Assembly (NCBI RefSeq): GCF_963921235.1
Contig: NC_086108.1
Coordinates: forward strand, 45,200,001-45,264,000
DNA length: 64,000 nucleotides
Source: Mobula hypostoma
Taxonomy: Eukaryota
Direction: 5' to 3'
The first letter of the stretch is position 1. Each line of letters begins with the position of its first letter. Below the pieces are notes generated by a model, which worked only from the letters and a program-made list of their open reading frames with translations, ran no database searches and was not told the DNA's origin. Below are positions 5,350-64,000 of the stretch, piece after piece. A program made the translations under genes and the position numbers.

Positions 5350-5970
5350 AAAAAGTCTTGGTAAAATTGGTTTATTATTGTCACATGTACTGAAGTACAG
5401 TGAAAAACATGTCATGCATACTGTCCACACAGATCAATTCATTCCAACAGTGCGCTGAGGTAGTACAAGGTAAAGCAATAACAGTCTGCAGAATGAAGTG
5501 CAACTGTACAGGAGAAAGTGCAGTACAAGTAGATAGTACAGTACAAGGTCACAACAAGTAAACTGTGAGGTTAAGGTCCATCTTATTGTACCAGGGGACC
5601 ACTCAGTAACCTTATAATAATGAGACAGAAGCTGTCCTTGAGCCTAGTGGTATGTATTTTGTTGCTTTTGTATCTTCTGTCTGATGGGGGGAGGAGAAGA
5701 GTGAGTAGCCAGGTTGAGTGCGATCTTTGATTCTGCCGGCTGATTTACCCAGGCAGCAAAAGTGCAGACAGAGGCCATGAGAGGGGAGGCTGGTTACTGT
5801 GATGTGCTGACCTCTGTTCACTACTCCCTGCGGTTTCTTGGTGTCATGGGAGGAGCAGTTTCCATACCATGCCATATGCATCTGGACTGGATTCTTTCTA
5901 TGGTGCATTGATAAAAATTGGTGAGGGTCAAAGGGGCCATGTCATATTTCTTCAGTGTCCTGAAGAAACT
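5350..5970 (-). mobile_element. Rex1/Babar-type LINE 3' fragment
   Basis: Peptide remnants AWYGNCS and QHITVTSLP, followed by a 3' UTR carrying AATAAA on the minus strand. Confidence 0.65.
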
Positions 5971-7482: not shown

Positions 7483-9665
7483 GATTCATAGAGTCATAGA
7501 ACACCACAGCATGGAAGCAGGCCATTCAGCCTGTCTAATCTGTGCTGAACCATTAATCCTCCTAGTCCCATTGACCTGCACCAGGACCATAGCCCTCCAT
7601 GCGCCTTGCATCCATGTATCTATCCAAATTTCTTTTAAATGTTGAAGTCAAACCCACATCTACTACTTTTACTGGAAGCTCTTTCCACACTCTCACCTGT
7701 CTCTGAGTGAAGAAGTTTCACCTCAGGTTCTCGTTAAACATTTTACCTTTCATCTTTAAACTATGACCTCGAGTTGTAGTCTCATTCCACCTCAGTGGAA
7801 AATGTCTGCTTGCGTTTCTCCTATCTATACCCTTCATAATTTTTGCAGCTCAGTCTTCTACACTCCAGGGAATGAAGTCCAAACCTACTCAACCTTTTCC
7901 TATAACTCAGTCCTCAAGTCCTGGCAACATCCTTGTAAATTTTCTGTGCACTCTTTCAATCTTATTTACATCTTTCCAGTTGGTAGGTGACCAAAACTGC
8001 ATAGAATACTCCAAATTAGGCCCCATCAATACCTTATACAATTTCAACATAACATCCCAACTCCCTGTACTCTTAACATTGATTTATTAAGGACAATGTA
8101 CCAAAAACTTTCTTTAAGACCCTATTTACCTGTGATGCCATTTTTAAAGAATTGTAGGTCTATATTCACAGATCCCTCAGTTCTACTGCACTGCACAGTG
8201 CCCTACCTTTTACCGTATAAGACCTACCCTGGTTGGTCCTCCCACAGTGCAACACTTCACACTTGTCCGCATTAAATTCCTTCTGCATTTTTCAAGCTGG
8301 ACTGGAGCCCATTCCGAGCTTTAACAATCTTTCTCGCTGTCCACTAACCCCCTCCCCCCAATTTTGGTGTCATTCGCAAATAAACTGATCCAGATTACCA
8401 CATTATTAACCAGATCATTGATATAGATGACAAAAAAACAACAATCCCAGCATCGATCCCTTTGGTACTCCACTAATCACAGGCCACCAGTCAGAGAGGC
8501 AACCGTCTATAACGTTGCTCTGGTTTCTAATGTGAAGCCAATGTCTAATCCATTTTACTACCTCATCTTGAATGCCATGCAACTGAACCTTCTTGACCAA
8601 CCTCCTATGCATGACCTGGTCAGGGGCCTTGCTAAAGTTCATGTTGATGAAGGCAAGGCAGTGGATAGTCATACTTTATTAAGTATGGGATCAATAAAGT
8701 ATGACTATCCACTGCCTTGCCTTCATCAACTCCATAAGATCGATTAGACACAACTAACCATGCAAAAAGCCATGTCGATATTCCCTAATCAGTTCCTGTC
8801 TGTCCAAATGCTTATATATCCGGTCCCTTAGAATACCTCCCAGTTACATTTCCACTACTGATGTCAGGCTCACCGGCCTATAATTTCCCTGCTTATTCTT
8901 AGAGCCTTTCTTAAACAACAGAAGAACATTAGCTATTCTCCATCACATCATCCTCGGATAAGGATGTGTTAAATATCTCTGCAAGGGCCCCTGCAATTTC
9001 TACACTAGCCTCCCACAGGGTCCACACTTTGTTTGTTCTTAGAGATTTATTTTTCACTCTTAATTTGTCTCAAGACAGCAAACACCTCCTCCCCTATAAT
9101 CTGTATAGGGTCCATAACCTTGCTTCTGCATTTCCTCATATGTATTGACTTTGTATCCATTTCCCAAGTAAATGCAGATGCAAAAAATCTATTTACGATC
9201 TCCCCCATCTCTTTTGGCTCCATGCATAGACTATCACTCTGATCTTCCAGAGGTCCAATTTCATCTCTTGCTATCGTTTTGTTCTGTAGAGACCCTTGGG
9301 ATTTCCCTTTGCCTTGTCTGCGAAAACAAACTCATGTCTTCTTATAGCTGTACTAATTTCCTTCTTAAGTGTTCTCTTGCATTTGTTATACTCCTCAAGT
9401 ACCTCATTTGTTCCTGCCTACACCTGCTGTGCAATTTTTTAACCAGGCTCTCAATATCTCTTGAAAACATAGGCTCTCTGAACCTCTTACCTTTGCCTTT
9501 TATTCTGACAGAAAAATACAAAGTCTGTACTCTCAAAATATCACTTTTGAAGGCCTTCCACTTACCAAGTACAACTTTGCCAGAAAACAACGTATCCTAA
9601 TCCACACTTGCCAGATCCTTTCTGATATCATCAAAATGGCTTTTCTTCAATTAGAGTTTCAACCC
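7483..9665 (-). mobile_element. CR1 LINE, 5'-truncated and internally deleted
   Basis: Remnants NFSKAPDQVMHRRLVKKV..HGIQ, SGVPKGSMLG and LFSGKVVLGKWKAFK. The 3' end lies near 7483. Colinear with the CR1 at 44.2-48.6 kb. Confidence 0.85.
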
Positions 9666-19591: not shown

Positions 19592-19753
19592 TTCGAAGGC
19601 TGTAATAAGGCATTTTCTAGACTAGAAAATCTCAAGATCCACCTGCGGAGCCATACTGGTGAGAAGCCTTACCTTTGTCAACACACCGGCTGCCAGAAGG
19701 CTTTCAGCAACTCCAGTGATCGTGCCAAACACCAGCGAACACACCTGGACACA
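19592..19753 (+). CDS. GLIS1: GLIS-family C2H2 zinc-finger transcription factor, internal coding exon (most of ZF3 plus ZF4)
   Basis: Acceptor ...ctttattgcag|TTC and donor ACA|gtaagc. The exon is 162 nt, phase 0/0, and encodes [54 protein letters not shown], nearly identical to GLIS1/GLIS3 as recalled. The paralog call rests on the next exon. Confidence 0.9.
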
Positions 19754-23600: not shown

Positions 23601-24917
23601 GGGACCCTCTAGCCCGCCAAGAGCGTGTGTGTGATCCGTTTACCAATGTCACTCCTGGTTCTGGGTGAACCACCCTTGTTGCACACTGGGAACTGAAGTT
23701 CTTTATTACATGGACACATAATAACACATCTTCCCCCTTTAAAGAAAACAGACACAATAGTATGTCCTCATAAACCTGCAAGACACAATAAAGCTTTCCA
23801 ACAAAGATATTTACATTAACTTGAATTGTAATGAGCAAATACAGTCCCCCATTCACTCATCCACTCTCAAAGCATCTCTGTGGTAGTCCCTTTTGGACTG
23901 CTGTTTACTTTCATAGATGTCTTGCTTTCATTTGCTGCATTAATACCAGTGCCCTTTTGAGAACTCTGATCTATGTGTTCATTTCTTCTACATCCTCTGC
24001 CAAGATCTTATCTGTTTGTCTCTGTTCTTGTGCTTGCTCTGTAACCATAAATCACTCCACGTTCCTCATAATAGAGCCCTGGACTATATCCATGTGATCA
24101 GTGAGTCTTTGCTTAAGTTTCAATTGAGTCTGTCTCGATTCACAGAGCTCCTTCTGTTGGCTGCGTATCATAGATAGCAACTCCTCCTGTTGGTTTGTGT
24201 TGAACTATTGCGGTTGTTATGACCCTGGGTCTTTTGCGGGCTCCCAAACTTACTTTTTATTTTTCCTCTTCAACTTTGGTGAGGATTGTGGAGATAGTTT
24301 TGATTTCCAGTTTTTAATTGAAAGTTGATGAGAATGAGAACCAATGCTGCATGATGTGGAAGTAAGACCGATGACTTCTTCATCATCATCACTCTGTTCA
24401 ATACTGGCATCCTGACTGTCATGCTGGTGTAGCTGGTACGGATGTCTATGGAAAGTGGAGTTCTTGTGCTTCTCTTGCATAACCTTTCTGGAGCTCTCGT
24501 GGATGCTGTTTCGAGTTTCTCGAGTTACATCAGGTAAGCATCCGAGTTCCTCAAAGACATCTGGGTACTTTTTATTGAGTGCTACCTGGTCACCTTTGGT
24601 CTGTAAAGGCACTACAAAAACTCTTTCCACTATGTTGAGCCTTTCACATGCACTCAGATCCAATACAGTACTGGCTGTACTCACTTTTCGGCAATCTGTA
24701 GCTGTGCCTTTAGGTGCTGCCCTTTGTGTTTGAAGGTCACGATACAGACTCCTTTTACTGGAACATTCTCTCCAGTTTAGTCTGTCACTTTTAACTTCAC
24801 TGGGTAAATCTTGTTGTTTACTTTGAGAGTCTTGTAATCATCCATGGATAACAGATTCACCTGGGCCCTGGTGTCAAGCTCGAATGGAATTACTGTCTCA
24901 TTCATAGTCATTGGAAC

Positions 24918-26857
24918 GATCCAAAAAGAAGCGGAGAGCTTTGAGACCTTCCTGATGGGGGATGGAAGTATATAGGGACTAGACATCCATGGTGAAAATA
25001 TAGTGGTGGGGACCAGGGAACTTAAAATCATCGAAACGTTTAAGAGCGTGAGAAGTGTCACGAACATAGGTAGGAAGGGATTGAACAAGGGGATCTGCAT
25101 ACCTCAACACGGTCTCGTTTCTGCATACCTCGACACGGTTTTATCCCCCCGCTTCTTTTTGGATTCCAGACCTAATCAGTTCCCCTCTACCACCACTCTG
25201 CTCCGTCTAGCGGAATTAGTCCTTACTCTTAATAATTTCTCCTTTGGCTCCTCCCACTTCCTCCAACCTAAAGGTGTAGCTATGGGCACCCGTATGGGTC
25301 CTAGCTATGCCTGCCTTTTTGTTGGCTTTGTGGAACAATCTATGTTCCAAAACTATTCTGGTATCTGTCCCCCACTTTTCCTTTGCTGCATCGACGACTG
25401 CATTGGTGCTGCTTCCTGCTCGTACGCAGAACTCGTTGACTTCATTAACTTTGCCTCCAACTTTCACCCTGCTCTCAAGTTTACCTGGTCCATTTCCGAT
25501 ACCTCCCTCCCTTTTCTAGAGCTTTCTGTCTCTATCTCTGGAGACAGCTTATCTACTGATGTCTACTATAAGCCTACTGACTCTCACGGCTATCTGGACT
25601 ATTCTTCTTCTCACCCTGTCTCTTGCAAAATTGCCATCCCCTTCTCGCAATTCCTCCGTCTCCACCGCATCTGCTCTCAGGATGAGGCTTTTCATTCCAG
25701 GACGAGGGAGATGTCCTCCTTTTTTAAAGAAAGGGGCTTCCCTTCCTCCACCATCAACTCTGCTGTCAAACGCATCTCCCCCATTTCACGCACATCTGCA
25801 CTCCCTCCATCCTCCCGCCACCCCACTAGGAATAGGGTTCCCCTGGTCCTCACCTACCACCCCACCAGCCTCCGGGTCCAACATATTATTCTCCGTAACT
25901 TCCGCCACCTCCAACGGGATCCCACCACTAAGCACATCTTTCCCTCCCCCCCCCCGAGTTTCCACAGGGATTGCTCCCTACGCAACTCCCTTGTCCATTC
26001 GTCCCCCACATCCCTCCCCACTGATCTCCCTCCTGGCACTTATCCTTGTAAGCGGAACAAGTGCTACACATGCCCTTACACTTCCTCCTTACCACCATTC
26101 AGGGCCCCAGACAGTCCTTCCAGGTGAGGCGACACTTCACCTGTGAGTCGGCTGGGGTGATATAATGCGTCCGGTGCTCCCGATGTGGCCTTCTATATAT
26201 TGGCGAGACCCGACGCAGACTGGGAGATCGTTTTGCTGAACACCTACGCTCTGTCTGCCAGAGTAAGCAGGATCTCCCAGTGGCCACACATTTTAATTCC
26301 ACATCCCATTCCCCTTCTGACATGTCTATCCACGGCCTCCTCTACTGTAAAGATGAAGCCACATTCAGGTTGGAGGAACAACACCTTATATTCCATCTGG
26401 GTAGCCTCCAACCTGATGGCATGAACATTGACTTCTCTAACTTCTGCTAATGCCCCACCTCCCCCTCGTACCCCATCTGGTATTTACTGTATTTACATAC
26501 ACACATTCTTTCTCTCTCTCTCTCCTTTTTCTCCCTCTGTCCCTCTGACTATACCCCTTGCCCATCCTCTGGGTTTTTTCCCCTCCCTCCCTTTTCCTTC
26601 TCCCTGGGCCTCCTGTCCCATGATCCTGTCATATCCCCTTTGCCAATCACCTGTCCAGCTCTTGGCTCCATCCCTCCCCCTCTTGTCTTCTCCTATCATT
26701 TCGGATCTCCCCCTCCCCCTCCCACTTTCAAATCTTTTACTAGCTCTTCTTTCAGTTAGTCCTGACGAAGGGTCTCGGCCCGAAACGTCGACTGTACCTC
26801 TTCCTAGAGATGGTGCCTGGCCTGCTGCGTTCACCAGCAACTTTGATGTGTGTTGCT
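24918..26857 (+). mobile_element. Penelope-like element (RT + GIY-YIG), 5'-truncated and rearranged, inserted into the Gypsy element
   Basis: RT motifs GVAMGTRMGPSYACLF, (C)IDD, LPFLEL and YYKPTDSHGYL. After a frameshift, GIY-YIG GVI*CVRCSRCGLLYIGETRRRLGDRFAEH at ~26155-26245. The 3' pyrimidine-rich repeat carries a hammerhead motif. Confidence 0.92.
26757..26794 (+). ncRNA. Minimal type I hammerhead ribozyme (PLE-associated), core intact
   Basis: TAGTC-CTGACGA-A-GGGT(CTCG)GCCC-GAAAC-GTC^-GACTG. It has the CUGANGA and GAAA boxes, stem II, stem I TAGTC/GACTG, and palindromic ACGT in place of stem III. Predicted cleavage is after C26789. Confidence 0.8.
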
Positions 26858-28710
26858 ATGAAGACTTCCTTCATTTCCTCAGCCACTGTGTGCACCTTTC
26901 TCTTGGTAGCCCCAACTTTGAAGCACCTTGCAAAATGATTCTTCTTCCCACAATTATTGCAAGACTTTCCATAAGCAGGACACACCTTTGGCATGAACCT
27001 ACTTGCAAGTTTGCTGCATTTACTGTTTGATTGTACCTCTTTGCTATGCTGTTACTTGGCGAAACACCTTGTACTCTGCCCCTCTGTTTTCACAGCATGC
27101 ACGGTTGTTTCTGCCCTGTTCAGCTCTTCAGTTTGAATTTGTGTTGTCTCCAAAGCCCGGCACATATTCACAGCCTTTTGTAGCTTTAAATCTTTTTCAC
27201 AGTGCAACCTTTCTCTGAGAACAATAGTTTGGGATTCCACAAACTATCTTGTTTCTGACTAGTGAATCTCCCAAATCTCCAAACTCATTGGACTTACTCA
27301 GTGTGTGAAGTTCAGCTAAGTATTGGTCAAAGGAGACAGTTTGTTTCTGCTCACAGGAGAAGAACTTGGTATCCCTCAAATGTGATATTTTTACGTGGGA
27401 CAAAATACTCTTCCAATTTTGATCATCAGAGTGTCCATTTTAAAGTCTGCCTCCTCAGTTTGAAAGCTGTTGTAGATGTCCAAAGCATCTTCACCAATTA
27501 TGCGTAGAAAGATGGATGCTTTCAATTTTTCCTCTGCCCCACTGGCTCTGCTCGCCGCTAACCATATATTGAATCACTGTTTGAAGCTTTCCAAATTATC
27601 AGCTAGATTGCTAGTAAACTGCATAGATGTGGATGGACTTAGGTTATCCATAACAGAATTTTTCGGGCTTCTCCCACCTGAATCTCTTGGTAAGCTTTGA
27701 GAATGCATGCTCTCTTGCCAGCAGCTTCTCTCTGTCTGAACCTTGCATCCCTTTCTTAATTGCTTGCAGTATTCAGCTACGCTTCATACTTAGACCTCAC
27801 GCCGACTTCGGACACCATGTTCTGTTTGTTCTTTAACGAAGGCAAACTTGTGTGGGTAAAATGCTCGAACTATTTTATTTACAGATTTACAGAATGACTC
27901 CAGCTCAACCACATTTTACTCGGGACCTTCTAGCCCCCCAAGAAAGTGCGTGTGACCCGTTCATCAACGTCACTTCCATTTTTGAGTGAACCGCCCTCAT
28001 TGCGCACAGGGAACTGAAGTTCCTTTTTATGTAAACACATAATAACACACTTAATGCCCAGCATTGTCCTATGATCGTAAGAAAGATGTTTAAAAAAAAA
28101 CACAAAAAATCTTTAGTTGGCGCCCGAGAGGCAATCCAAATGCACTGCCATCATCCTGGAGTAAAAATTAACGAAAACTCAGTAAAAGAGGAGGTTAAAA
28201 TCAGACATTTGTTATTATTGTACGAACAGAAGGACTGGATGTGCTCCTCCATATTTTCCAAAACTATTCAGGACCAGAGTTACCAATAAAGGTTTTAGTG
28301 CATCTCACAATGAAAATTAGGTAGGCTTCATAGCACTCTAGGTTGAAACGGCTGGTTGCCTTGGGCAGTCAATCTTCAACCACACCCAGGTGCTGTGTCA
28401 TTAAATAGCTATGGTGAAGAGAAATTTAGTTCATTCTGTAAACCTCTTAACTTGACTGAATTAATACAAATCAAAAATAAATTACAGAAGTTGTTCATTA
28501 TCAGTAATATCAATAGGAGCATCAATATTTTTGTAAAGTAGATTCTTTTTAAGAAAGGATATACTGGCACTTGTGGCACTACAATAGAGACTCACTAGGC
28601 CCATTCCTGGGATGAAAGGGTTGTCCTATCAGTAGCAGCTAAAACAAATTATCTGTGTTCTTTGGAGTTTAGAAGAATGATCTTGCTAGAACACTTAAGA
28701 TGCTTGTAAA

Positions 28711-28801
28711 ACACACAAAATGCTGGAAGAACTCAGCAGGCCAGGCAGCATCTATGGAAAATTAAACAGTGGTCGTTTCGGGCCGAGACCCTTCGTCAGG
28801 A
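28711..28801 (-). mobile_element. PLE terminal fragment with degenerate hammerhead, inside an old CR1 remnant
   Basis: The minus strand reads TCCTGACGAAGGGTCTCGGCCCGAAACGACCACTG...GATGCTGCCTGGCCTGCTG. The cleavage triplet is mutated GTC>GAC. Confidence 0.8.
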
Positions 28802-31075
28802 TGCTTAGTGGTCATGTTGATGTTGAGTTATTTCCTCTAGTGGGAGAATATGGAATGAAGGGACAGAGTTACTAGGTTAGTAGGTAGTCGTTTTAAGCTG
28901 ACTTGCATAGGAATTCTTGCAGAATTTGGTGACTCTTTGGAACTCTTTACCTTGGTCTGTAGAGGCTACATCATTGGAGATTTTTAACATGGAAATAGAT
29001 ATATTTTTGAAAGATTAGGGAATTGTGAGATATGGAGGTCTGACACAGAGGAGGTAAAGGCAGGGAAGATCATTCATGACTGTATAGAATGGCTACAAAC
29101 AGCTGAGTGGCTTACTCCTGATTCCAGATTGTTTAATGTCATTTCCAGTACATAAGCGTAAAGGAGGATGAAATAATTGTTACTCTGGATCTGATGCATC
29201 ACAAAAATCACAATAAGTTAAATAACGTGATAATATAAAAAAATCAATAGATATAAATACATAATATAGTTTATATACATAGATTGATTATATGCCCATA
29301 GGTTCTTATAAATAATTGTAAGATGCTCATTGATTTTTTTCATATGTTTGAGTGGCTTTCTTTAATAGTGTTAATTATTTGAAAGCTTGGTATTCATCTC
29401 TTTTGGTGAATGTACATGTCATGCTCTTAGTTTACGCTCATGGTGTTGGATTGAGGCAGACTGTCCAAAAAGGACAGACACCTGATCAGTGATACAAATT
29501 ATTTAACAAATAAATTTACAGTTAGCTTTATTTTTCTCTTGAGAGAGTTTGCCAAAATATAGTCGCCAATAGCTACTGATCCTTCCAGAACTATCTTTAA
29601 TATAGGGAAGGAACAAGGACTTGCTGCACCATTTCTAATGGTACAGTAGCCAAACTAACCTTATCTGGGCACAGACATGGACAGCAACACTTAGGCCATT
29701 TGGAAGCATGGAGCTGTGCTCAACCCAAGAGCTGAAGTGAAAACTGAATGAAAGGTTTGCCAGCAAGACTGCGATGGTTTACATTTTGAGCCAGGTAATC
29801 TTGAAAACATATGTTTAGGATTGTCAGAGGAATTCTAATTAAATAAGATAAAACAGATGCTGAATCTGTTTGAATTTATGAAACTTTCGTCATGGGATAC
29901 AGAATAGGTTGCTCTGTCTTTCTGTTATATGACTCAAATATTGATGTACTGTATGTGATGTCTAAGCATAAAACTTAATTCTTTTCTTCTTTGTGCTTTC
30001 CTTCCTTTGCCAAGGAATCTCTACCTTCAGAGCTCAGGTACCACTCATTCAATCAATTCAGTCGATGATGGTCGAGACAAATTTCAATTGCAATGTTTTT
30101 TTTTGTCTATCACATGAGCAATAATTTGACAGAGATTGCTCAGCTGCATAAAACCTAACTGATTCAGTTCATTGAAATTATCAGTTGTCAATGATTTGAG
30201 ATTTATCTGCTCTGCCATGTTATTGTCCATGAAATAAAGGCAGCATTTGAACTCCCGTAAGCTATTATTTATACATGTCTGTGAAGTTTATGCATCTTAT
30301 GACCATGCCATAGACTTAAACGTGGCAGCTTAAGTAAACTTGTAAAGCTGCTATGCTCTTGGGTGTGTTACACAAAGAATACCAGATCAAGATCTACTGC
30401 CAGCTGTTGCAGGGCATTTTGTCCAGAGACATTGATTCCTATAGCAGTGCCATGTAGCTACTGTGCCAAAGGAGTAAGACGGTCAGGTAAAGTTTAAAGC
30501 ATTCCTAACAATTTATTCATTCTGTATTATGGGATTACCTATTGGAATGACTTTGCATACTTATCCAAAAGTGCTTTAGCAATTACATCCAACAATATAC
30601 ATGGTACCAAGTTAAAGGTTACACACAGCAACTAATCTTGAAACAAAAACATTGCTTGCATGTAACCCTGTAAAGTGCAGCATTTAAAATATGGCCTTTG
30701 ATAAATTATTGCTATGAAACATTCTTTGTTTGCAGCCTCTTAATAGTTTTACTTTGAGTACCGGTAATAATTATCAACAACTACAGTTGTGAAAACTATT
30801 TTCAGCCTTTTGAATCAAATCCAGGAGTAAGGCTATCATCTGACACCCCTGGTCAGCTGCCAGAGCTGAGCTGTTCGAGTGAAGTGTCTTAAAAAGAAGA
30901 ATTTCTACTTTTAGTAACTGCATTCCAGTTGAAAAGTGCTCATGCACAGGAACTAATAATTCACTATTCCATAGCAGAAGGAATCACATGGTATATAGTC
31001 AGGATAGAATTGTCTTAATGAGACTCAGCAGCGATTGTGAAGTGTAAAACTTCTTTCTCTCTCAAACATTTACAG

Positions 31076-31186
31076 AAACCATATGCTTGTCAGATCCCAG
31101 GGTGCACAAAGCGCTACACTGATCCAAGCTCATTGAGGAAGCATGTCAAAGCACACTCTGCCAAACAGCAACAGGTGCGTAAGAAG
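31076..31186 (+). CDS. GLIS1: GLIS-family exon encoding ZF5 and the downstream basic region
   Basis: Acceptor ...aacatttacag|AAA and donor AAG|gtaaga. The exon is 111 nt and in frame with the previous one. It encodes [46 protein letters not shown] fits GLIS1 (HSAKEQQVRKK) better than GLIS3 (HSSKEQQARKK), as recalled. It is absent from the ORF track. Confidence 0.88.
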
Positions 31187-31954
31187 GTAAGAAATAATCA
31201 TAGATAATCCAGTATGTGTCATGTACTGGACAATCACATGTTTTTGGGAAATACAGGTATTCATTTTCACATCACATTTTTGGGGAAATATTTATTTGTT
31301 TTAGAAAGATTATATTTTCTTTTCTCACATTTTTTTTCAATGGAGAATGTTGAACATGTCACAATTGTGAAAAAAAAGATAAATTAAACTAGAAGTCGTG
31401 GTTATGAAGGCCAGCCTAGGTTTTAGAAGCCAGCTATGAAGAAGAATGAAAGACTCAAGGGCTGAAGACGTCCATTATTTTTGCATCCTTGAAAAGTGTG
31501 ATTCAGAACATGATTAGTCTCGAAGAAGCGTGTCAAGAAATATTTGTTGAAACTATATTGATATAATATGGGAAGTTTGTGCTTATTCTTCCACTACAAG
31601 AAATTTTCTCTTTTATAGCAGTTAATATGAACTCTCAGAAATTTCAAGGAAGTATTGAAATAAACATACTTCTTTCAGGCTCAGTGGGAAAAAGTGAAAC
31701 TGAAATTGCTGGAAAAACTCAGCATGTTTGAGTTTCACTGATAAAGTGAGCCAATTTTGCTCAACACTTTATCAAGAAGGAAATGAAAACAATGCCTCAC
31801 CTTATCAGAAATATTCTCTTTGTCCTACCCCTCTCTCCCCACTCTTTCTGCAACTTAAAACCAACTTATTTTCTTTCTTCATGAACCTGAAATGTTAAAT
31901 CTGTTTCTCTTTCCACAGAAACTGCCTGACCTAGGAAAGCCAGCTACTAATCAG

Positions 31955-34900
31955 AAATAGCCAGCATGGCTTTGTCAATGACAAATCCTGTCTGATGAAC
32001 AGATTAAAATTTCTGAAGAAATAACAAAATGTATTGATGAGGGCAGCACAATAGATGTAGTTTACAAGGACTTTGACAAGGACTCACGTGGGAGACTGGT
32101 CCAAAAGGTTAGGGATCAAGGACAAGTTAATAAATTGGACCCAAAATTGGTTTTACCATAAGAATCAGACTATAATAATAGAGGGTTGCTTTTGTAAATA
32201 GATGTCTGTGACTTGTGGTATTTCACAGAGATCAGTGTGGAGACCTTTGTTGTTTGTAATAGACATGAATGATGTGGATGTAAGATTAGATTAGATTCAA
32301 CTTTATTGTCATTGTGCCGAGTACAGATACAAAGCCAATGAAATGCAGTTAGCATCTGACCAGAAATGCAAAGAATAGTGTTATTTACAAAATAACTGCG
32401 AATAAAAAGTGCTACAGCACACAAATATAGAAGTACTGAGACAGTACAGTACGGATGCAATAATGCTTAGCGCTGTGATGTGAGGTTCAGCAGTGTCACA
32501 GCCTCAGAAGAAGCTCTTCCTGTGCCTGCTGGTACGGGAGCGGAGGCTCCTGTAGCGCCTACCGGATGGGAGGAGAGTAAAAAGTCCATGGTCAGGGTGA
32601 GATGCATCCCTGATAATGCTTTTCACCCTGCCCAGGCAGCGTTTATTGTAGATGTTCTCAATGGTGGGCAATTGGGTGCCGATAATCCGCTGGGCAGTCC
32701 TCACCACCCGCTGAAGTGCTTTGCAGTCTGATACAGGACAATTGCCATACCACACTGAGATGCAGTTGGTGAGTATGCTCTCAATGGTACAGCGGAAAAA
32801 GTCCGTCAGTATCCTGGGACAGAGGTGAGCTTTCTTCATGCTCCGCAGGAAATAAAGGCACTGTTGCGCCTTTTTAATCAGGATGGAGGAGTTCAGGGAC
32901 CAGGTGAGATTCTCAGAAATGTGGACACCAAGGAATTTGAAGCTTGATACACGCTCCACTACAGCTCAGTTGATGTAGATGGGGACGTGAGTATGGCTGC
33001 TAGCATGCCTGAAGTCCACAATGATCTCCTTGGTCTTCTGGGTGTTAAGGGCCAGATTGTTGTCAGCACACCACGCGGCCAGGTGCTGAACCTTGTCCTT
33101 GTAGGCCGTCTCGTCATCCCCTCTGATCAGACCAACCACCGTGGTGGTGTCTGCGAACTTGATTATGGAGTTAGAACCATGTACAGGAACACAGTCATAG
33201 GTGAAAAGGGAGTACAGAAGAGGGCTCAGCACACAGCCTTGAGGCACGCTGGTGTTCAGGGTGAGAGTGGAGGAGGAGAAGTTGTCTAACTTAACAGATT
33301 GGGGTCTGTTAGTTAGAAAGTCCAAGGTCCAACTGCAGAGGGATACGCTGATACCAAGCTGGCGAAGTTTGGCATCAGCTTGGAGGGGATTGCAGTACTG
33401 AATGCCGAACTAAAGTCAATGAACAGCTTTCTGACGTAAGAGTTGGGGCTGTCCAGGTGGGTCAGGGCAGAGTGAAGTGCCGTGGAGATGGCATCCTCTG
33501 CTGACCTGTTGGTGCGATAGGCAAATTGATGGGGGTCCAAGGTAGAGGGTAGACAGGATTTCAGATGTGATGGAACCAGTCTCTCAAAGCACTTTGCAAC
33601 GATGGGGGTGAGTGCAACTGGGCGGAAGTCATTCAGGCCAGCGGCAGTGGAATGCTTCAGCACTGGCACGATGGTGGCGATCTTGAAGCTTGTGGGGGCA
33701 ACTGCCTGGGCCAGGGACAGATCAAAAATGTCTGTGAAGACCCCGGCCAACTGCCCTGCACAGACTCTGAGCACACGGCCAGGTATTCCATCCGGATCAG
33801 CTGCCTTCCATACATTCATCCTGCTCAGGGGGGCGTAAACATCGGAGGTGGAAAGTGAGAGAGGCGGTTCACCAGGTGGGAGATCCGCTTTGAGGGTGAC
33901 TTCCTTGTTCTCTCGGTCAAAGTGAACGTAGAAGTAATTGAGCTCATCAGGGAGGGAAGCAGAGCTGGAAGGGGCCACAGTACTAGGAGGTTTGAGGTCT
34001 GTAATGACCTGTATGCCATGCCACATGCGCTGGGGGTCTGAGGAGTTGAAATGCTCCTCGATTCTCTGTTTGTATATGTGTTTAGCCTGGGAGATTCCCC
34101 TCCTTAGGTTGGCCCTAGCTGAGCTGTAAGCCTCCCAGTCTCCAGACCTGAAGGCTGAATCTCTGGCTTTGAGCAGGAGGCGAACTTCTCTGTTCATCCA
34201 TAGTTCCTGATTGGGAAAAACTTTTATTTGTCTTTGTGGTGTCACTCTATCTACACACTTGTTGATGTGCTCAAGGACAGGTGAGAAGCATGATAGGTAA
34301 GTTCTCAGATGACACAATGATTGGTGGAGTTGTTGATGGTGTGGTGTGTGATATTGATGTATTGAGAAATGGCAGATGAAGTTTGATCCAGATAAATGTG
34401 AGGTGTTTTTTTTTGGAATACCAATGAGTAGGACATACACCATGAATGGTAACGACCTAGAGAGTATCAGTGGGGCCTTGGTGTACACTTTCAAAGATAA
34501 TTGAGGTTGACAGTTCAGGTAGAGAATGAGGTGAAGAAGGCAAGTGCAATAGACATTGAATGCAAAAGCAGAGATGTTATACTAAAACTGTAAAAAAGTA
34601 TTGGTTAGACCTCAAAAGCAGTACTACATACAGTTTCAAAACATACAAGATATGATAACAAGTGAAGGCCCAAAGGACATTCACCAGTATTTTACCTGGG
34701 ATAGTGCGTTTCAATAATGAAGAGGCTGGGTTTGTTTATCCTGCAACAGAGGAGGGTAAGAGGTGACATCATTGAAATATATAAAGTTATGAGCGGCATA
34801 GATAGGGAAGACTGCAGGAAGCTATTTCCCAAATCAGAGCTAAATAAAAATAGAGGACATAGATTTGGTGTAAGTTGTGGGGGATTTAGAGAAGATCTGT

Positions 34901-35085
34901 GAATCACAATTACCTGGAAGCAGAATCACTGAAAACAATTTGACAAATGTTGAGATGTGCAGTTGAATTGTCTGGCATAGAAGACAATGAGCCAAGTGCT
35001 GGAAGATAGAGTGAATACAAATGGATAACCACTGGCCAGCATTGATGTGATGGGCTGAATGCTCTGTTTCCATGCTATATAATTC
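31955..35085 (+). mobile_element. Old CR1 RT/3' fragment split by the Rex1 insertion
   Basis: SQHGFV..KSCL.N at ~31960. It resumes after 34280 with SMIGKFSDDTMIGG and LGLFILQQRRVRGDIIEIYK. Confidence 0.75.
32283..34280 (-). mobile_element. Rex1/Babar-clade LINE, 5'-truncated RT-containing copy
   Basis: [42 protein letters not shown] and KKAQQCLYFLR are spread over three frameshifted ORFs. The 3' end is AATAAAGTTG(AATCT)3. Confidence 0.92.
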
Positions 35086-36921
35086 AGTGGCTCCATGATC
35101 TGCTGACTGTCTCCAGGTTTTCTGACTTTTATTTCAAATTCTTGATTCTCAGGAAGAAAATAAATCACTTGTTAAGAAACAGAACTTATTATTAATCCAT
35201 AAATGCTGATTTACAGTAAGCTCTAAACTGGGCAGTCTGATTTTAATGAGGATGCACAAAACAAACATAAAGCTTTTGTTTGCCTTAGGAAAAAATCCAG
35301 TGCTTGATTGTGTTATAGTAAGTGATACCTGTAAAATTACTTCAAGTGTGCAATTTTTCAGATACTTAAGGCACTAATTCATAAAATTTACTGTCATTAT
35401 GCTCATAAAATAAGCAAAACAAATGTTGCTTTCTATTTTAAGACTTTCATGAAATAATGAGCTAATAATATCATGGTATGTGTCTAATACATTAAATTAC
35501 ATTGGAATATCTGTTTACATATTAACAGGCATTGAATCCTGAAGCTTAAAATGTCTTTGAGGTGCTTACAGTGTGCCCAAAAAAGCACTTGACTAGTTGC
35601 ACAAGTCATACGCTGTCAAGATCCTAGTCGGCATTTATGAGACTAACCTGCACTTTCTGGCTTAGGTGACTGTGGCTCCACTAGACAATGGTGAAGCCCA
35701 TGAATAGATGGGAAGCAAAAATAGAACAGAGTGTAAAATCAATGTCTGTCTAGGTACCATATCCGATGCTGCGTTGGTGACCATGGTTTTCCATATAGAT
35801 CTATCCCCCGTTCTTTGAATGACTTCCATTTCCTCGATGTGTGGCTATGCTTTTGATGTACATAAGCCGAGATCTTCCTCTAGGTTTACTCCCCTCGATC
35901 TTTCCAGAGAGTATGAGTTTTTCTAGCTCATCTTTCCGCATGATGTGTCCTAGGAATCTGAGTTGTCTTTCTCTTATTGTTGGTATGAGTGATCAAACTG
36001 CTTGGGCTCTTCTGAGAACTTCTTCATTTGATGTGTGTGTGGTCCATGATATTTTTAACATTCTCCTGTAGAACCATAATTCAGCTGCTTCTAGTCTCTT
36101 TTCCATTGCTGGGGAAATGGTCCAGCATTCACTTCCGTAAGTCAGGATAGAATAAATGTAGCACTGCAGTATTCTGTTTTTAGTGTACGTGCTCATCTTT
36201 CTGTCTGTTAATACGGTCTTCATTTTTTGGTAAGCTTCTTTCGCCATTGCTATTCTGTATTTAATATCTGTGTCGCACCTGCCATTACTTGTTATTAGGC
36301 TGCCAAGATATCTGAGTTTGTTGACTTGTTTGATGTTTGTATTTCCAATCTTGATCACACATTGTGGGGTGTTTGTCTTTCTGGAGATGACCATGCTTTC
36401 TGTCTTTCTGGTGTTGATTGAGAGGCCTTTGCGATCACTTTCTGCTGCCACTATAGTGAGTAGTTCTTGAAGTTTTGTGTCTGAGTCAGCTATTAGTACA
36501 ATGTCATCAGCATATCTGATGTTATTTATATTATGGCCTCCAATTGTGAATCCTTTGCTGTCTTTGATACTTCTCAAGATATTTTCACTATACAGGTTGA
36601 GTAAGTCTGGCAAAAAGACACAACCTTGCCTGACTTCTCTCATGATATTCACATACTCACTCACTTCTCCTATTATTCTGATGGATGCTGTCTGGTCCCC
36701 ATATAAGTTTCTTAAGAAATGTATATCTTTCCCATCTATGTCAAGATGGTTCCTGCTTCTCAGACGCTGAGCAGTAGATCCTTTTAATAGGACAATGGTC
36801 AGGGTCACCCATCTTGTAAAGACACTGCATTGGAAGCAAGCAAGGGGAAGCTGCTTGTATTTCATCCCTAGTACAACCATGGTTAATACATACACAAATG
36901 TAAAAGACAACAGTGTAAATG

Positions 36922-37057
36922 GTTAGTCCTGACGAAGGGTCTCGGCCTGAAACGTCGACTGCGCCTCTTCCTATAGATGCTGCCTGGCCTGCTGCGTTCA
37001 CCAGCAACTTTGATGTATGTTGCTTGAATTTCCAGCATCTGCAGAATTCCTGTTGTT
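36922..37057 (+). mobile_element. 136-bp PLE terminal-repeat insertion beginning with a hammerhead
   Basis: Near-identical to 26755-26857 over the shared part. Flanked by direct repeat AGTGTAAATG (36912-36921 and 37058-37067). Removing it restores the RTE N-terminal frame (MVNTYTNVKDNSVNGSPLP...). Confidence 0.9.
36924..36961 (+). ncRNA. Minimal type I hammerhead ribozyme, core intact
   Basis: TAGTC-CTGACGA-A-GGGTCTCGGCCT-GAAAC-GTC^-GACTG. One stem II pair has become G-U. Confidence 0.75.
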
Positions 37058-37367
37058 AGTGTAAATGGGAGCCCACTTCCAAATAGTGCAGACACCTCAC
37101 TCGGTACGGGATATCATGTAAACAGACAGGTGAACCCGGATCATCGTACCACTACTGTCTGCAAGAACAAGAGACTGCGAGTTGCCACTTGGAATGTTCG
37201 AACCCTGCACCAAGCTGTAAGCTAGAAAACGTAACATTAGAAATTAAGAGGCTAGAAGTCAGCATCCTAGGCCTAAGTGAAATAAGATGGAAAGGCACTG
37301 GAGTATTCCAATCAGACGACTACAGGATGATATACTCTGGTGGAGGTAAACATGAAAAGGGTTTTGC

Positions 37368-40300
37368 TGTGGCGACCCACTTCCCAGCGCACATGAACCG
37401 GCTCATGAAACAGCGCGTGCCGGCAGAGAGGCCGGCCCCAAAAAGGGTGCCAGGCCATCTTCACCAACAGGGGGAAAATCCCTCGCGCGGAAAGGGTCTG
37501 CAAATATGCATTCCCCACAGCAGTCCTGCCTGGGGAGGGCGGGAACAGGAAGCCTTTAAAGGAGGCTGCGAAGTTTGAATAAATCTCTTTTATCGCAACT
37601 CCAACTCACCGACTACGTGTCGTTATTCTAGCGCTGTGTGTAGCACACCGCTACACTTGGTGATCCCGACGGCCCAAACGATATTTGGACCAGAGATAAC
37701 CAACGCCGCATCTGTTCGCGCAGTTTTGTTAAAACTGCCAAGCTTCTGGACGCTGCGACCTCGTCTGTGGTTCGAACAAGCAGAACCCCAATTCCACATT
37801 CAGCAGATAACCTCGGATTCCATTCATTACTACTATGTGGTGAGCTCCCTCGACCAGGAGACAGCTGCACAAGTTGAGGAGTTTATACAGTCGCCCCGGG
37901 AGGACGGCAAATACACAGCATTCAAAGCCGTGCTCATAAGGACTTTTGAACTTTCACGGCGCGAGCAAGCTGCCTGCTTACTGCACCTGGATGGTTTGGG
38001 AGACAGGCCGCCGTCAGCATTAATGAACGAAATGCTGGCCCTGGCTGAAGGACACAAACCCTGCCTTATGTTTGAGCAGGCGTTCCTAGAGCAACTGCCC
38101 GAGGACATATGCCTACTGCTGTCCGACGCAGATTTCAGCAACCCCCGGAAGGTGGTGGCCTGGGCAGATGTGCTGTGGAATGCCAAGAAGGAGTGGGGTG
38201 CCCGTCGCACAGATCACCAAGCCACGTGCCCAACGACAGACCAGACCAGGCCCGGTAGCAGAGCCTACATAACCCGGCAATGGGAGTGAGGAGCCCAACG
38301 AACAATGGTGTTTCTACCACCAGTGGTGGGGCATGGAGGCCCGCCGCTGCAGACCGCCCTGCAAATTCCCGGGAAACGCCACGGCCAGCCGCCGCTGATG
38401 GCTACGGCGGCTGGCCATCAGGACAGCCTCCTGTATGTCTGGGACAAGCAGCTGGGACGCCGCATTTTGGTCGACACTGGAGCGGAGATCAGCGTCTTAC
38501 CTCCAACAAGTTACGACACCCGGAACAGAGAACCGGGACCCACGTTGAGGGCCGCTAATGGCAGCACAATACGAACCTACGGCACCCGCACGGTGCGGCT
38601 ACAGTTCAGCTCCAGCCGGTTCACATGGGACTTCACACTGGCCGCCGTGGCCCAACCACTCCTGGGGGCAGATTTTCTGCGAGCTCACAACCTGCTGGTC
38701 GACTTGCAAGGGAAGTGACTAGTCCATGCCAAGACTTTTCAAACGTTCTCCCTGGGTGAAGCCAAGTTGCCAACCCCACACCTGGACTCCATCACACTGT
38801 CCGATGACGAATTCACCAGGGTCCTGGCGGATTTCCCATCAGTTCTGACACCGCAGTTCACGGCAGCCATGCCCAGACACGGAGTACAGCACCACATCCC
38901 GACCCAGGGACCACCCCTCCACGCTCGTGCTCGAAGGCTTCCCCTGGACAAGCTCCGACTGACGAAAGAGGAGTTCAAGAAGATGGAGGAATTGGGGATC
39001 ATACAACGGTCCGACAGCCCATGGGCCTCCCCCTGCACATGGTGCCCAAGGCAACGAGGGGCTAGAGACCATGTGGCGACTACCACAGACTGAACGAGGC
39101 TACAACGCCAGACCGCTACCCTGTGCCGCACACTCAAGACTTTGCAGCAAACCTACATGGCGCAAGGATCTCTTCCAAGGTAGACCTCGTCCGAGGATAC
39201 CATCAAATCCAGGTACATCTGGACGACATCCCCAAAACAGCACTCATCACCCTGTTCGGCCTTTCGAATTCCTCTGAATGCCGCGCAGACGTTTCAGCGG
39301 CTAATGGACGCGGTGGGACGCGACCTGGACTTTGCATTCATCTATTTGGACGACATCCTCATAGCCAGCAGTAGTCGTCAGGAGCATCTGTCCCACCTCC
39401 GCCAGCTCTACTCCCGCCTGAGTGAATTTGGCCTTACAACCAACCCGGCCAAATGCCAGTTCAGACTCGACACCATCGACTTCCTGGGCCACAGGATTAC
39501 TAAAGACGGGGCAACCTCTCTGCCCACCAAGGTAGACAGGGTCCGCCACTTTCCCCGTCCCAACACAGTCAAAGGCCTGCAGGAATTCGTGGGTATGGTG
39601 AATTTCTACCACCACTTCCTCCCCTCAGCAGCCCGAATCATGCGCCCCCATTCACTCTGATGTCGGGTATGGGCAAGGACATTACCTGGGATGAAGAGGC
39701 CGTGGCCACTTTCGTTAAAACCAAACAAGCCTTGGCAAACGCCGTGATGCTAGTGCACCCCAGAACAGTCGCTCCTACTGCCCTCACGGTGGACGCATCC
39801 AACCCAGCAGTCGATGGAGTGCTGGAACAACTCATTGAGGGTCGCTGGCAACCCCTGGCGTTCTTCAGCAAACACCTACGACCACCTGAACTCAAATACA
39901 GTGCTTTCGACTGGGAGCTATTGACACTATACCTGGCAATCTGGCATTTCAGGTACTCCTTAGAAGGTAGGCCCTTCATCGCATTTACGGACCACAAACC
40001 GCTTACCTTTGCGTTCACTAAGGTGTCCGACCCCTGGTCGTCCCGCCAGCAGCGACATCTGTCCTACATCTCCAAATACACAACGGGCATCCGGCATGTC
40101 TTGGGAAAGGACAACGTCGTGATGGACGCACTATCCAGACCTACCATACAGGCCCTGTCCCAGGGGGTGGACTATGCAGCACTGGCGGAGGCACAGCAGG
40201 CAGACGATGAGATCCCTAGTTACAGGACTGCGGTCTCCGGTTTGCAGCTCCAAGACCTCCCCGTAGGCCTATGTGAGAGGACCCTACTGTGTGACATAGC

Positions 40301-41726
40301 TACCGGCCAACCTCGCCCCGTCGTCCCAGCAGCCTGGCGCCGGCGGGTTTTCGAGTCCATTCACAACTTAGCGCACCCCTCCATCAGGACAACCGTCCAG
40401 CTGGTCTCCAACAGATTAGTGTGGCATGGGCTGCGTAAACAGGTCAGTGAATGGGCCAAAACGTGCATGCAGTGCCAAACGGCCAAGGTGCAGTGGCACA
40501 CCAAGGCTCCGCTGCAGCAGTTCGAACCCACCCGCCGGAGGTTCGACCACATTCATGTGGATATCGTGGGGCCCCTGCCAGTGTCATGAGGAGCGTGGTA
40601 CCTCCTAACTATGATAGACCGGTTCACCAGATGGCCAGAGGCGGTCCCGCTCACCGACACCACCTCCGAATCCTGTGCCCGAGCACTGATCGCAACCTGG
40701 GTAGCCCACTTCAGGGTATCAGCCCACATTACATCTGACAAGGGCGCCCAGTTCACCTCCAGTCTGTGGTCGGCTATGGCCAGCCTTTTAGGATCGCAGC
40801 TACACCATACAACTGCCTGCCACCCACAGTCGAACAGACTAGTACAGAGTTTCCACCGTCACCTGAAGTCGGCTCTCATGGCCCGCCTGGAAGGGCCTAA
40901 CTGGGTGGACGAACTTCCCTGGGTCCTGCTCGGAATCCGCTCGGTGCCCAAGGAGGATCTGCGCACCTCGTCGGCCGAGTTGGTGTACGGCGCACCCCTG
41001 GTAGTCCCAGGACAGTTCATACCGGCCCCAAGGGGGCAAGAGGAGGAACCCGCAGCAGTCCTGGACAGACTACAGGAGAGGCTCGGTAACCTGGCCCCCA
41101 TACCCACTTCACAGCATGGACAGAGCCCAACCTGCGTACCCAAAGACCTGCAGAACTGTAAGTTTCTTTTTGTACGACAGGGCGGACACCGGGCACCGCT
41201 ACAGTGGCCCTACGAGGGGCCGTTTAAGGTGATCAGGAACAACGGGTCCACATTCGTGCTGGACGTTGCGGGGGGAGAGGAGGTTTTCACAGTGGACCGA
41301 CTCAAACCGGCCCATGTGGACTTGTCGCAGCCAGTCCGGTCTCAGGCACCGCGGCGCAGGGGCAGACCTCCCAAACAGAGGCCGATCCAGACTGTGGACA
41401 TTGGGGGAGGTATCACCTGTTCTTGGGGGGGGGGGTTATGTGGTGACCCACTTTCCAGCGCACTTGAACTGGCTCACGAAACAGCACGCGCCGGCAGAGA
41501 GGCCGGCCCCAAAAAGGGCGCCAGGCCATCTTCACCAGCAGGGGGAAAATCCCGCTTGCGGAAAGGGTCTGCGAATATGCATTCCCCACAGCAGTCCCGC
41601 CCGTGGAGGGTGGGAACGGGAAGGCTTTAAAGGAGGCTGCGAAGTTTGAATAAATCTCTTTTATCGCAACTCCAACTCACCGACTACGTGTCGTTATTCT
41701 AGCGCTGTGTGTAGCACACCGCTACA
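37368..41726 (+). mobile_element. Full-length, decayed Ty3/Gypsy LTR retrotransposon
   Basis: 288-bp LTRs at 37368-37655 and 41439-41726 (TGT...ACA, with AATAAA). PBS TGGTGATCCCGACG, tRNA-Trp-like, at 37658-37671. G-run PPT at 41425-41435. Domain order is gag (KLPSFW..RPRLWFEQAE), PR (LVDTGA), RT (YLDD), RNase H (VDAS, TDHKPL), INT (HNLAHP..C..C, HVDIVGPLP, GPF). Several frameshifts and stops. Confidence 0.96.
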
Positions 41727-42322
41727 TTTTAATCATTTTAGACAAAGAAACATTCAAGAGCCTGCTAGCATACTGGCATATCTCAAACAGAGTGATGCTA
41801 ATCAAACTAAAAGGACAACAAAACAACATCTCTATCATCCAAGTATACGCACCCCCAATGGGAAGCTCAGAGGAAGAAATTGATGCCTTCTACCACTCTC
41901 TAGACAAAGCACTAGAAGAATGCAAATCACAAGAAGCCATCATAGTCATGGGCGACTTCAATGCAAAAGTTGGTGAGGGAAGAGAAGACCATATTGTTGG
42001 AGACCAGGGACTGGGAGAAGGAAATGAAAGAGGAGAATAGCTTATGTCATGGTGTAAAACAAACAATCAGATAATCACCAACACTTGGTTTAAACAACAT
42101 CCAAGAAGGAAATGGACATGGAGAAGCCCAGATGGGAACAACAAAAATCAAATCGACTACATAACAATCAATAACAGTAAAATCAATAACCTGTAAAAAA
42201 AAGGGTTACCAAGCAATTTTAAGAAGTCCTTGTATTGCTTGTTTTCCTCCTCCTCTTAATCTTTGCTGTAACTTGGGTATCAGTAACGGCCAGAAAACAC
42301 TCGGAGCTACCCATAACAAAGA

Positions 42323-61410: not shown

Positions 61411-61719
61411 GGTAATAAGTAAAACTATTCATGGTTTTACTGAGTCCTTGAATCAACAGACCAATATGCATCTCACCTCCTTCATTTAAATGCCTTCAGA
61501 AAGTTTAAAAGCACCCTTGTGTATTATTACTGATGCTCCAAGGACCAGTATGGTAGCATTAAGTACTATTTTTCTTTAAGAGCTTATTGTTCAGATTGAC
61601 CTTGGAAAACTCTCTAGAACTCCTGCCCAGTAAGCTGGCCAATTCCCTAATTTTGATGCAGTTATCTGAGCAGTGTTCTGATCAAATGTAAATGAAGCAT
61701 TTGAAATGTAGTGGTGCAT

Positions 61720-61955
61720 GCCTCACCCCCACCCCCCTTCCTCCTCACCTGGTTTCACTCATCACTTGCCAGCATGTACTCCTTCCCCTACCCCCACTTT
61801 CTTATTCTGGCTTTCCCCCTTCCTTTCCAGTCCTGATGAAGGGTCTCAGCCCAAAATGTCAACTGTTTATTCCCCTCCATAGATACTGCCTGACTGGCTG
61901 CGTTCCTCCAGTCTTTTGTGTTTGTTGCTCAGGATTTCCAGCATCTGTAGAATCT
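61720..61955 (+). mobile_element. PLE terminal fragment with degenerate hammerhead (61828-61865)
   Basis: CAGTC-CTGATGA-AGGGTCTCAGCCC-AAAAT-GTC-AACTG, followed by the same downstream repeat (GATACTGCCTG...TTTCCAGCATCTG). Confidence 0.75.
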
Positions 61956-64000
61956 TTTATGTCAGATTGATGATATTGTGGGCCTTTAGTCCTGTTTCTT
62001 CCTGGCAGTTCAAATCCTATTTCAGTTTCTCCCACTGTCAGTTACCTTAGTTTTGATCCAGTCTTGACTCCAAGAAGTCTAGAATATAGGACCAGGTGTA
62101 GGACATCTGTCCCCTCACCACCTCCATCATTTAATATTATCATGGCTGTTCTTTGCAAACCTCAACTCCTCTCCTGTGACAGTTCTCCAAAATCACCATT
62201 TCCTGATCTTCAAATATTTCTCTATCTCCTTCTTACTCTTGCATAACTGTATGTGGTGAGTGACATGAAAGTGTTTCACAGTGGCTCCCATGAGCTAGTG
62301 TAGTAGCTATTGTGAGTTGGTGTGCTGCCAATAGTGTTGAAATCAGTGATCATTTTAAAGGTATATTTGTCATCCAGAACTGAGAATGTCCTGTTTTCTT
62401 CCAGTGATATCATATGCTTTAAATTTAAATATAATCTTAAGTATAAGGCAAGTAGTGTTCAACGTAGAAAATGTCGCTGACTGGAACATCAGTGTCATGG
62501 GTCTGGTTGGCGTGAATTCACCACCAGCGCACTCAGCCAGGCTTAGTTGTATATATCATTCTTTCCATTGGGAAATGTGGCTCATTTCATCCAGTTAATT
62601 AGTTGTTTGAAAGTGAGATGTCTGAGGTTCCTCACCAGATTTTTATTTGCCTGTCATTAATTTTTTTGATCAAGAGTTGGGTGGTCAGCAGTTGAAATTC
62701 CTTCCCCCCTCCAGTGGTAATCTCGTTGAAGATTTCAAAGATACTTAAGATGTTAACAATTGAGAAAAGAAATGAGGCACAAATTAAAAACTAGGATATG
62801 AAAAATAGAAAAAGTTAGGTGGAATGTTTTCACCCAAATGATAGTCGACTTACAGAATAAATTACCAAAGAGTTGACAACATAAATGGACTCAAGATAAT
62901 CTGTGTTTTCCTGAAGAGAAACAGATGGAGAGATACGGTTAGACATCAGATAAATACGGGTTTGAGATCTCTGAAAAGCGTACAGTCTTATTTTGCTGGC
63001 TTTCTGTAGTTATTAAAATTCTGTTCTTTCGACATACAAACAAATGCAATTTCTAGCAGGAGTGATTGGATTGAAGTCAGCAGCAGTAAGTAAGATTTTA
63101 CTTCTCCCTACCCATCTATCCCCCTGTAACCTCAGGGGTTTGGTGGCCACCACTCCTATCATTCTCCAATAATCAAGCTCTGTACAACAGGGCTAAATTG
63201 GGATTAAATTTAGTTGCTTGTTAGGATTTTAGCATTTTGAAGCAACTCCTGCCTCTCTTTTCCTACCTTAATTTACCTAAAAAAAAATAGGCTTAAGAAG
63301 ATCTCCTCTTCCTTTATACTTGTACAAATTTGGGCACTTAACTTGAGTACTTAAATGTGCAGAATTGGAGCTCAGAACCTGCTAATAAAAAAACTTTAAC
63401 AGATTCCATTATATTGTCCAGTTGACTAAAAGTCTTTGAATTGGCTTTTGTTTTCATGCACATATGAAAGCTGTTTTTTTTTCATTCAGGAAAGGTTAAA
63501 GCTTTCCTGTGAGAAAAGTTATAAAAGAGGCTTTTTAAATACATTTTTTTTGCATTTGTTTTGGAGTGTTAGAATTCATTTTAGAATATTTATAAACTAG
63601 ATTTTGGAAACAAGCATGCTTCGCAGAATTCTCGCTTTTAAAAATAGATCTCTTTAAAAGATTCTAACCCCCCTCCCCCATGCCTGAATTTCTGCTAGAA
63701 GTTCTCACTTAGCAAAACTCCGTGATAAAGTTCAACCCTTTGGATCATAAAAGGAAGGGAGTTTTGAATTTATCATGGGATATTTATTACTATTCCGTCC
63801 CACTTCCTTGAAAATTCAGATGTGTGAGGTGTTAGTGTTAGCAGGGAAGGGTGGTGGTTCTGTTGCAAGGTTAATACAAAGGTAGTGTAGTAATGATTTA
63901 TCTCCGCATAACATCCTGTCACTTTCCGGGGTAGATCATTCACGATAGAAAATCAAATGGCAATAAAAATACTTGTGTTTCTCAACTGGTCACTTGTGTG

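Follow-up and report, generated by a model that had tools for sequence, protein, structure and literature searches.

Minimal hammerhead motifs of a Penelope-like retroelement family in GLIS1 introns of a cartilaginous fish, probably inert in the host pre-mRNA

Closest described hammerhead systems

Minimal hammerhead ribozymes, located in the pseudo-LTRs of metazoan Penelope-like elements, were defined by Cervera and De la Pena in 2014 by features that include an extra base, a G10.1-C11.1 pair and a palindrome (PMC4209133). According to the same report they number thousands per genome, mostly as single motifs tied to truncated elements, and are inactive as monomers, with low activity for dimers and trimers. 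Penelope-like elements of the Neptune and Nematis clades carry a CX2-5CxxC linker between reverse transcriptase (RT) and endonuclease (10.1101/2021.04.23.441226). Frangieh et al. (2024) studied PAc, a Poseidon element of the anole, and describe reverse transcription that begins inside the RNA downstream of the motif, insertion that does not need cleavage, and a hammerhead that cleaves only with the element's protein, no RNA-seq reads beginning or ending at the site (PMC11167929). Li et al. (2026) found retrozymes in tandem in a single chondrichthyan, and in Xenopus a modest deficit in introns (10.64898/2026.07.22.740005). A literature search on Penelope-like hammerheads in sharks returned no paper that, by its title, opening abstract or selected passages, deals with the family described here, which may nevertheless be included in the species list of the latter study.

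The four motifs discussed below were found in a 64-kb window, the whole stretch of DNA analysed. They resemble minimal hammerheads in structure (type I, CUGANGA plus one extra base, G10.1-C11.1, GAAA, a palindromic 15.2-16.2, no helix III and a U-rich 5′ flank) and in setting, with the site 3′ of an RT-endonuclease ORF and copies that are mostly single and truncated (PMC4209133). Stem II has 4 bp here and 7-8 bp in the Schistosoma families of that report. Its Acropora digitifera row in Fig. S3 shares CUGACGAA, a GGG-led stem II and the CGUC layout, and none of the Fig. S3 and Table S1 rows examined comes from a shark or ray (PMC4209133). The surrounding element follows the Neptune/Nematis plan in its RT with a C-terminal GIY-YIG domain and zinc-finger-like linker, in its truncation at the 5′ end beside an inverted 5′ piece, and in its variable 3′ tail and pseudo-LTR hammerhead (10.1101/2021.04.23.441226); it differs in that the copy in the window is truncated and broken. 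A hammerhead shortly upstream of genomic 3′ ends and a variable tail are also seen in PAc (PMC11167929), which belongs to a different clade, Penelope/Poseidon, without the linker finger (10.1101/2021.04.23.441226). Protein-assisted cleavage was shown for PAc (PMC11167929).

Type I hammerheads in vertebrate introns that are thought to be retroelement-derived are also known from amniote RECK, CTCL and DTNB, where they are conserved across animal classes and drawn with tertiary contacts (PMC6155905). The GLIS1 copies differ from this type in being minimal, multi-copy, decaying and still inside element sequence. A stable monomer fold with helix III is missing, the predicted folds pairing the core as GACG/CGUC, and a domesticated RECK-type ribozyme was rejected. 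Non-LTR retrozymes share the type I hammerhead, the short non-coding copies and the Penelope derivation, but are organised as tandem arrays (PMC7229834; 10.64898/2026.07.22.740005). With 0 of 8 tandem-repeat rows overlapping a copy here, a retrozyme array was rejected as well.

Four motifs on remains of a Penelope-like element

The first-pass annotation had placed the motifs in the introns of a GLIS gene, and the host is indeed a GLIS gene on the + strand, of GLIS1 type by its diagnostic residues. Two exons were recognised by translation and protein matches, one encoding zinc fingers 3-4 (19592..19753, +) and one encoding zinc finger 5 (31075..31187, +). They are 98% identical to a Stegostoma GLIS1-like protein, with 19 of 19 residues matching after finger 5. 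The diagnostic residues are those of GLIS1-labelled tetrapod proteins, unlike the six GLIS3-labelled tetrapod proteins compared, and a GLIS3 identity was accordingly rejected. A Chiloscyllium plagiosum protein labelled GLIS3 (P0152) carries GLIS1-type residues and may be misnamed. Among named proteins, those most similar to the gene and those most similar to the element both come from sharks, and the host can be recognised from these matches as a cartilaginous fish. No further GLIS exon was found in the 64-kb window, and copies 2 and 4 probably lie in one shared downstream intron.

All four motifs were read out at the positions and strands first proposed for them. Copy 1 (26757..26794, +) is a complete, fully intact minimal type I hammerhead motif, with stem I at 26757-61/26790-94, the core at 26762-68, an extra A at 26769 (between positions 9 and 10.1), stem II at 26770-73/26778-81, GAAA at 26782-85, the palindromic 15.2-16.2 at C26786-G26787 and a predicted cut after C26789. 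Copy 2 (36924-36961, +; predicted cut after C36956) shares with it CUGACGA and the extra A, the 4-bp stem II, GAAA, the palindromic ACGU, GUC and stem I UAGUC/GACUG, and both predicted cut sites had been placed correctly. Of the two cores originally taken as intact, copy 1 is perfect and copy 2 nearly so, its sole difference within the motif, T36948, turning G10.1-C11.1 into a G.U; copies 1, 3 and 4 keep the G-C pair. Copy 3 (core start 28799, −) is antisense to GLIS1, with GAC in place of GUC and stem I broken. Copy 4 (61828-61865, +) has lost G12 and the first stem I pair, and 5 of its 5 CpG positions are changed.

A minimal-hammerhead descriptor was passed by copies 1 and 2 and failed by copies 3 and 4. 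Its two matches in the window compare with 0.003 on average when the window is shuffled block-wise by a Markov model, and none of the shuffles (0/300) gave two. A chance motif was rejected. The loose pattern CTGANGA-gap-GAAA barely exceeds chance (12 occurrences vs 6.4 expected; 6/100 shuffles). An Rfam search of the window returned nine matches at E<=10 with no hammerhead among them; they comprise a hairpin at 8640-8735 and weak chance matches. The hairpin region holds a perfect 38-base inverted repeat with a 12-base spacer (8643-8730) and sub-threshold microRNA matches; it may be what is left of a small DNA transposon, or else a fold-back of very recent origin. Exact motif scans gave 0 matches in viral contigs and 0 in metagenome contigs, and a protein scan of the viral contigs gave 45 pattern matches with 0 relatives. 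No hammerhead position occurs among the 40 variants listed out of 523.

A link to Penelope-like elements had been suggested from general knowledge of minimal hammerheads, and RT plus GIY-YIG coding sequence does lie directly upstream of copy 1. The RT/thumb coding region (25132..26115, +) is 5′-truncated and was identified by protein matches and translation, its best named match being a Chiloscyllium punctatum protein at 67% identity, while most of the other relatives listed fall at 42-56%. There are 216 longer relatives at E<=0.001, many of them carrying PF00078 and some PF01541; proteins from marine invertebrates are among the others, and several are annotated as RT plus GIY-YIG. A Pfam search with the truncated RT piece itself gave no match. 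The GIY-YIG endonuclease region of the same element (26091..26450, +; PF01541 at E 0.0098, below the curated cut-off) is 47-49% identical to the C-termini of two of three relatives, the third ending before the domain. Between RT and endonuclease lies a C-x4-C-x2-C linker motif (26047-26073) that fits the Neptune/Nematis clades as defined by Craig et al., an assignment made by motif. An inverted 5′ piece of the element (24916..25125, −; tblastn frame −2) encodes RT from upstream of the truncation point, and is supported by an opposite-strand joint 25088/25150 in contigs.

The coding region has a frame break near 26086 and an in-frame stop near 26163, and the GIY-YIG region ends at a stop at 26448-26450. 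It is followed by the 3′ non-coding end, or pseudo-LTR (26451..26860, +), made up of a pyrimidine-rich tract, TTTCAG ending at 26755, the hammerhead and a tail of ~65 bases, so that the motif stands 312 bases past the stop and ~65 bases before the element 3′ end. An intact single ORF with two pseudo-LTRs is absent, given the frame break, the stop and the lack of a 5′ repeat: this is the usual form of a dead, 5′-truncated Penelope-like insertion. Copy 1 keeps all five CpGs of its motif beside a coding region broken in at least two places, a state that fits youth or chance, and also retention.

The description of the motifs as a dispersed family holds as regards the family; as regards free-standing motifs it does not, since each motif heads a 95-150-base repeat that is the Penelope-like element 3′ end. 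By BLAST and profile search, the copy 1 repeat shares 94% identity with that of copy 2, 81% with that of copy 3 and 74% with that of copy 4. The copy 2 insertion (36923..37057, +) comprises 135 bases, is 5′-truncated to the stem I edge and is flanked by an 11-base target duplication (36912-22 and 37058-68). An empty-site joint from 36914 to 37061, present in three of four contig runs, skips exactly 146 bases, that is, 135 + 11; because their depth far exceeds that of unique DNA, the contigs with this joint come from other copies of the host repeat. The copy 3 insertion (28706..28801, −) is truncated to ~95 bases and has a 7-base target duplication (28699-28705 and 28800-06). Contigs from a related organism (B) reach 30 and 24 bases into it from its two sides, below the 31-base rule, which is only a hint that the insertion is shared. 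Copy 4 sits in an older pseudo-LTR fragment (61715..61961, +; left edge approximate). A target duplication of at least 7 bases was not found at copy 1, and none at copy 4 was convincing.

The five CpGs of the copy 1 motif are kept in numbers of 5, 4, 4 and 0 by copies 1 to 4, respectively, although one of the five positions may be a subfamily state. The changes in copies 2-4 are decay after insertion, mostly at CpG. Joints between copies (for example 26767 to 36935) are present in a DNA run, where we take them for further members of the family rather than for a deletion or an RNA circle. Old tail-like relics without a hammerhead core occur at 31886-31932 (+) and 3890-3932 (−) as weaker profile matches.

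Copy 2 starts at the base after the one that corresponds to the end of copy 1's TTTCAG (36923 on the + strand vs 26755/26756), and copy 3 starts (28799-28801, −) at or within 2 bases of the point after copy 4's TTCCAG (61830/61831). In each case the longer copy of the same subfamily has an acceptor-like site there, a pyrimidine tract with CAG. What fixes the 5′ edge of mini-copies might be a splice acceptor and not the margin of stem I itself (n=2). Copy 2 adjoins a broken LINE RT region (35996-36922, −), in multi-copy sequence; this and a second such region (32504-34581, −) match PF00078. Downstream, a nearly full-length but broken LTR retrotransposon (~37500-41650, +) with DUF7041 gag-like, RNase H and integrase regions, and with terminal repeats visible in translation, is inserted in the endonuclease region of a LINE (37087-37578 and 41654-42040).

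Abundance and covariation of the family

Four of 24 contig runs (X1, X5, X12 and X17) were aligned to 24700-37300. They show no position at which molecule ends pile up, a signal that contigs are unable to reveal. Summed contig depth, which is not copy number, rises 5′ to 3′ along the element in X1 through 0.42, 1.0, 2.2, 3.6 and 5.1 million, and in X5 the same rise reaches 2.9 million at the 3′ end (again not copy number), compared with depths of 15-19 and 7-13 in unique intron bins of X1 and X5, respectively. This shows a very large family with heavy 5′ truncation. The family seems much more abundant than the 4,000-9,000 reported from coelacanth and Xenopus (PMC4209133), bearing in mind that depth is not copy number. 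The element 3′ end is also abundant in two presumed-RNA runs, which may be DNA. Runs from at least six organisms hold a quarter or more of the words of a 4-kb query, and in four of those organisms the shared words probably represent the Penelope-like element. With four motifs in 64 kb and a family so abundant, a pair of sense copies separated by 10 kb calls for no special account.

Related loci were scanned in metagenome contigs, taking the best 80 of 562. Of these, 39 had a mapped endonuclease end and 600 bases beyond it, and in 14 of the 39 the motif stands 83-300 bases after the endonuclease end, against 0/1950 shuffled windows. Strand counts among the best 80 were 22 sense vs 3 antisense, and a core-only search of the same loci found both stems in 22 of 33 sense matches. 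Across 25 distinct motifs, a set that includes window copy 1 and in which false matches were kept, 82% of stem cells pair, compared with 51% (maximum 66%) in 5000 permutations, none reaching the observed value, by a test that ignores relatedness. Position 2.3-1.3 occurs as four pair types, and G10.1-C11.1 is G-C in 19 of the 25 and G.U in none.

Covariation in stems I and II, which the first-pass annotation had asked for, is therefore found across related elements; among the four window copies compensatory change was seen in 0 of 10 pairs, a weak test at n=4. The covariation belongs to the retroelement lineage and not to the GLIS1 copies. Two related loci have a motif on both sides of the ORF, ~3.1 kb apart (L004 at 885 and 3951, L035 at 269 and 3421), and three others have an inverted second copy of it (L001, L008 and L037); all five are natural candidates for the element's own dimer.

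Fate of the copies in host pre-mRNA

We consider, at roughly 90% probability, that the motifs are the minimal hammerheads of Penelope-like terminal repeats, brought in by four separate insertions into GLIS1 introns and likely inert in the pre-mRNA. Selection on the motif would have acted within the RNA of the element itself, in which two terminal repeats (~3 kb apart, in a full-length or tandem copy) or the element's protein would permit folding and cutting. Nearly every insertion, however short, would retain the motif because reverse transcription would start shortly downstream of it, and copies would then decay, with CpG sites the most affected. The core of a lone copy is expected to pair as a GACG/CGUC helix and so be kept from its active shape: the best predicted monomer folds pair core GACG with CGUC, burying the active site, and in wider context the model gives this helix a probability of 0.31 in copy 1 (stem I ~0) and 0.91 in copy 2.

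The first-pass annotation had raised the possibility that copies 1 and 2 pair as a dimer and cut the host transcript, and the two do lie in sense on either side of the finger-5 exon, at a distance of 10,167 bases. In this reading they would form a double hammerhead across the exon, with swapped stem I arms and an ACGU/ACGU stem III, and would cut GLIS1 pre-mRNA after C26789 and/or C36956, thereby lowering GLIS1 output or releasing a 10-kb piece with the exon. A nested dimer of 22 base pairs can be drawn for these two sense copies and is about neutral against open-core monomers (−2.4 to +1.9 kcal/mol), yet under four parameter sets its energy exceeds that of the monomer ensembles, taken together, by 11.2, 7.2, 11.0 and 10.3 kcal/mol, and by a simple chain estimate the 10,167-base tether amounts to an effective concentration of 0.08-0.6 micromolar, a cost of 9-10 kcal/mol. 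The nearest-neighbour models, which omit the non-standard contacts of the hammerhead core and any protein, make the dimer improbable. Tandem dimers of minimal hammerheads do cleave in vitro, at a low level (PMC4209133), and an engineered fast hammerhead in a zebrafish intron reduces mRNA up to 20-fold (PMC11856399); but copy 2 has its G.U where 19 of 25 distinct core matches have G-C and none has G.U, independent insertions of the family are common enough for chance pairs (four motifs in 64 kb), and transcription leaves the intron of copy 1 5.8 kb before it reaches copy 2, so that splicing would presumably compete. On this evidence the cross-exon dimer is not supported, and is to be called extremely unlikely rather than refuted; inert monomers are better supported. 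In the two presumed-RNA runs depth is near zero in the unique intron bins and stands at 0 and 2.2 in the bin of the finger-5 exon; GLIS1 pre-mRNA is thus unsampled there and these contigs carry no evidence on cleavage.

Two other routes by which copy 1 might matter are very improbable in our judgement. Low-level cleavage of it could be assisted in trans by the element protein or by another of the many transcripts with the motif, with no selected host role. Its perfect motif, the abundance of the family 3′ end in the two presumed-RNA runs (possibly DNA) and the protein-assisted cleavage of the anole Penelope-like hammerhead (PMC11167929) speak for this; however, the protein-binding region of the anole element is downstream of the motif, within the initial 172 nt of the ORF (PMC11167929), whereas copy 1 retains only ~65 bases past the motif, an objection that presumes the anole layout carries over to this clade. 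No reads ended at the cut site in the anole study (PMC11167929). Alternatively copy 1, if it affects GLIS1 at all, may act through TTTCAG ending at 26755 as a cryptic splice acceptor and not as a ribozyme. Pyrimidines occupy 17 of the 20 positions before this CAG, compared with 13/20 and ~16/20 at two true acceptors, and in Drosophila virilis Penelope the 5′ arm of helix I marks the end of an intron (PMC4209133). On the other side, no splice joint to 26756 is found among the 15 joints listed (of which 2715 more exist, the upstream exon being outside the aligned stretch), and no strong donor is seen nearby by eye. A broader proposal, that intact sense intronic copies are latent cut sites genome-wide, activated by element protein or by a second copy, we hold to be very improbable.

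With the motifs read as inert relics of Penelope-like terminal repeats, the finding adds a cartilaginous-fish family to the motif class described in 2014 and otherwise matters little. In a family this abundant, whose intronic copies lie in both orientations and differ widely in age, host-RNA cutting can be tested: if minimal hammerheads cut host RNA, intact sense intronic copies would be depleted relative to antisense and broken ones. Were the cross-exon or the protein-assisted cut true, a dimer-type ribozyme of a transposon would be acting on a host developmental gene, and were intact copies latent cut sites, the output of host genes in cartilaginous fishes would be adjusted by how active the retrotransposon is.
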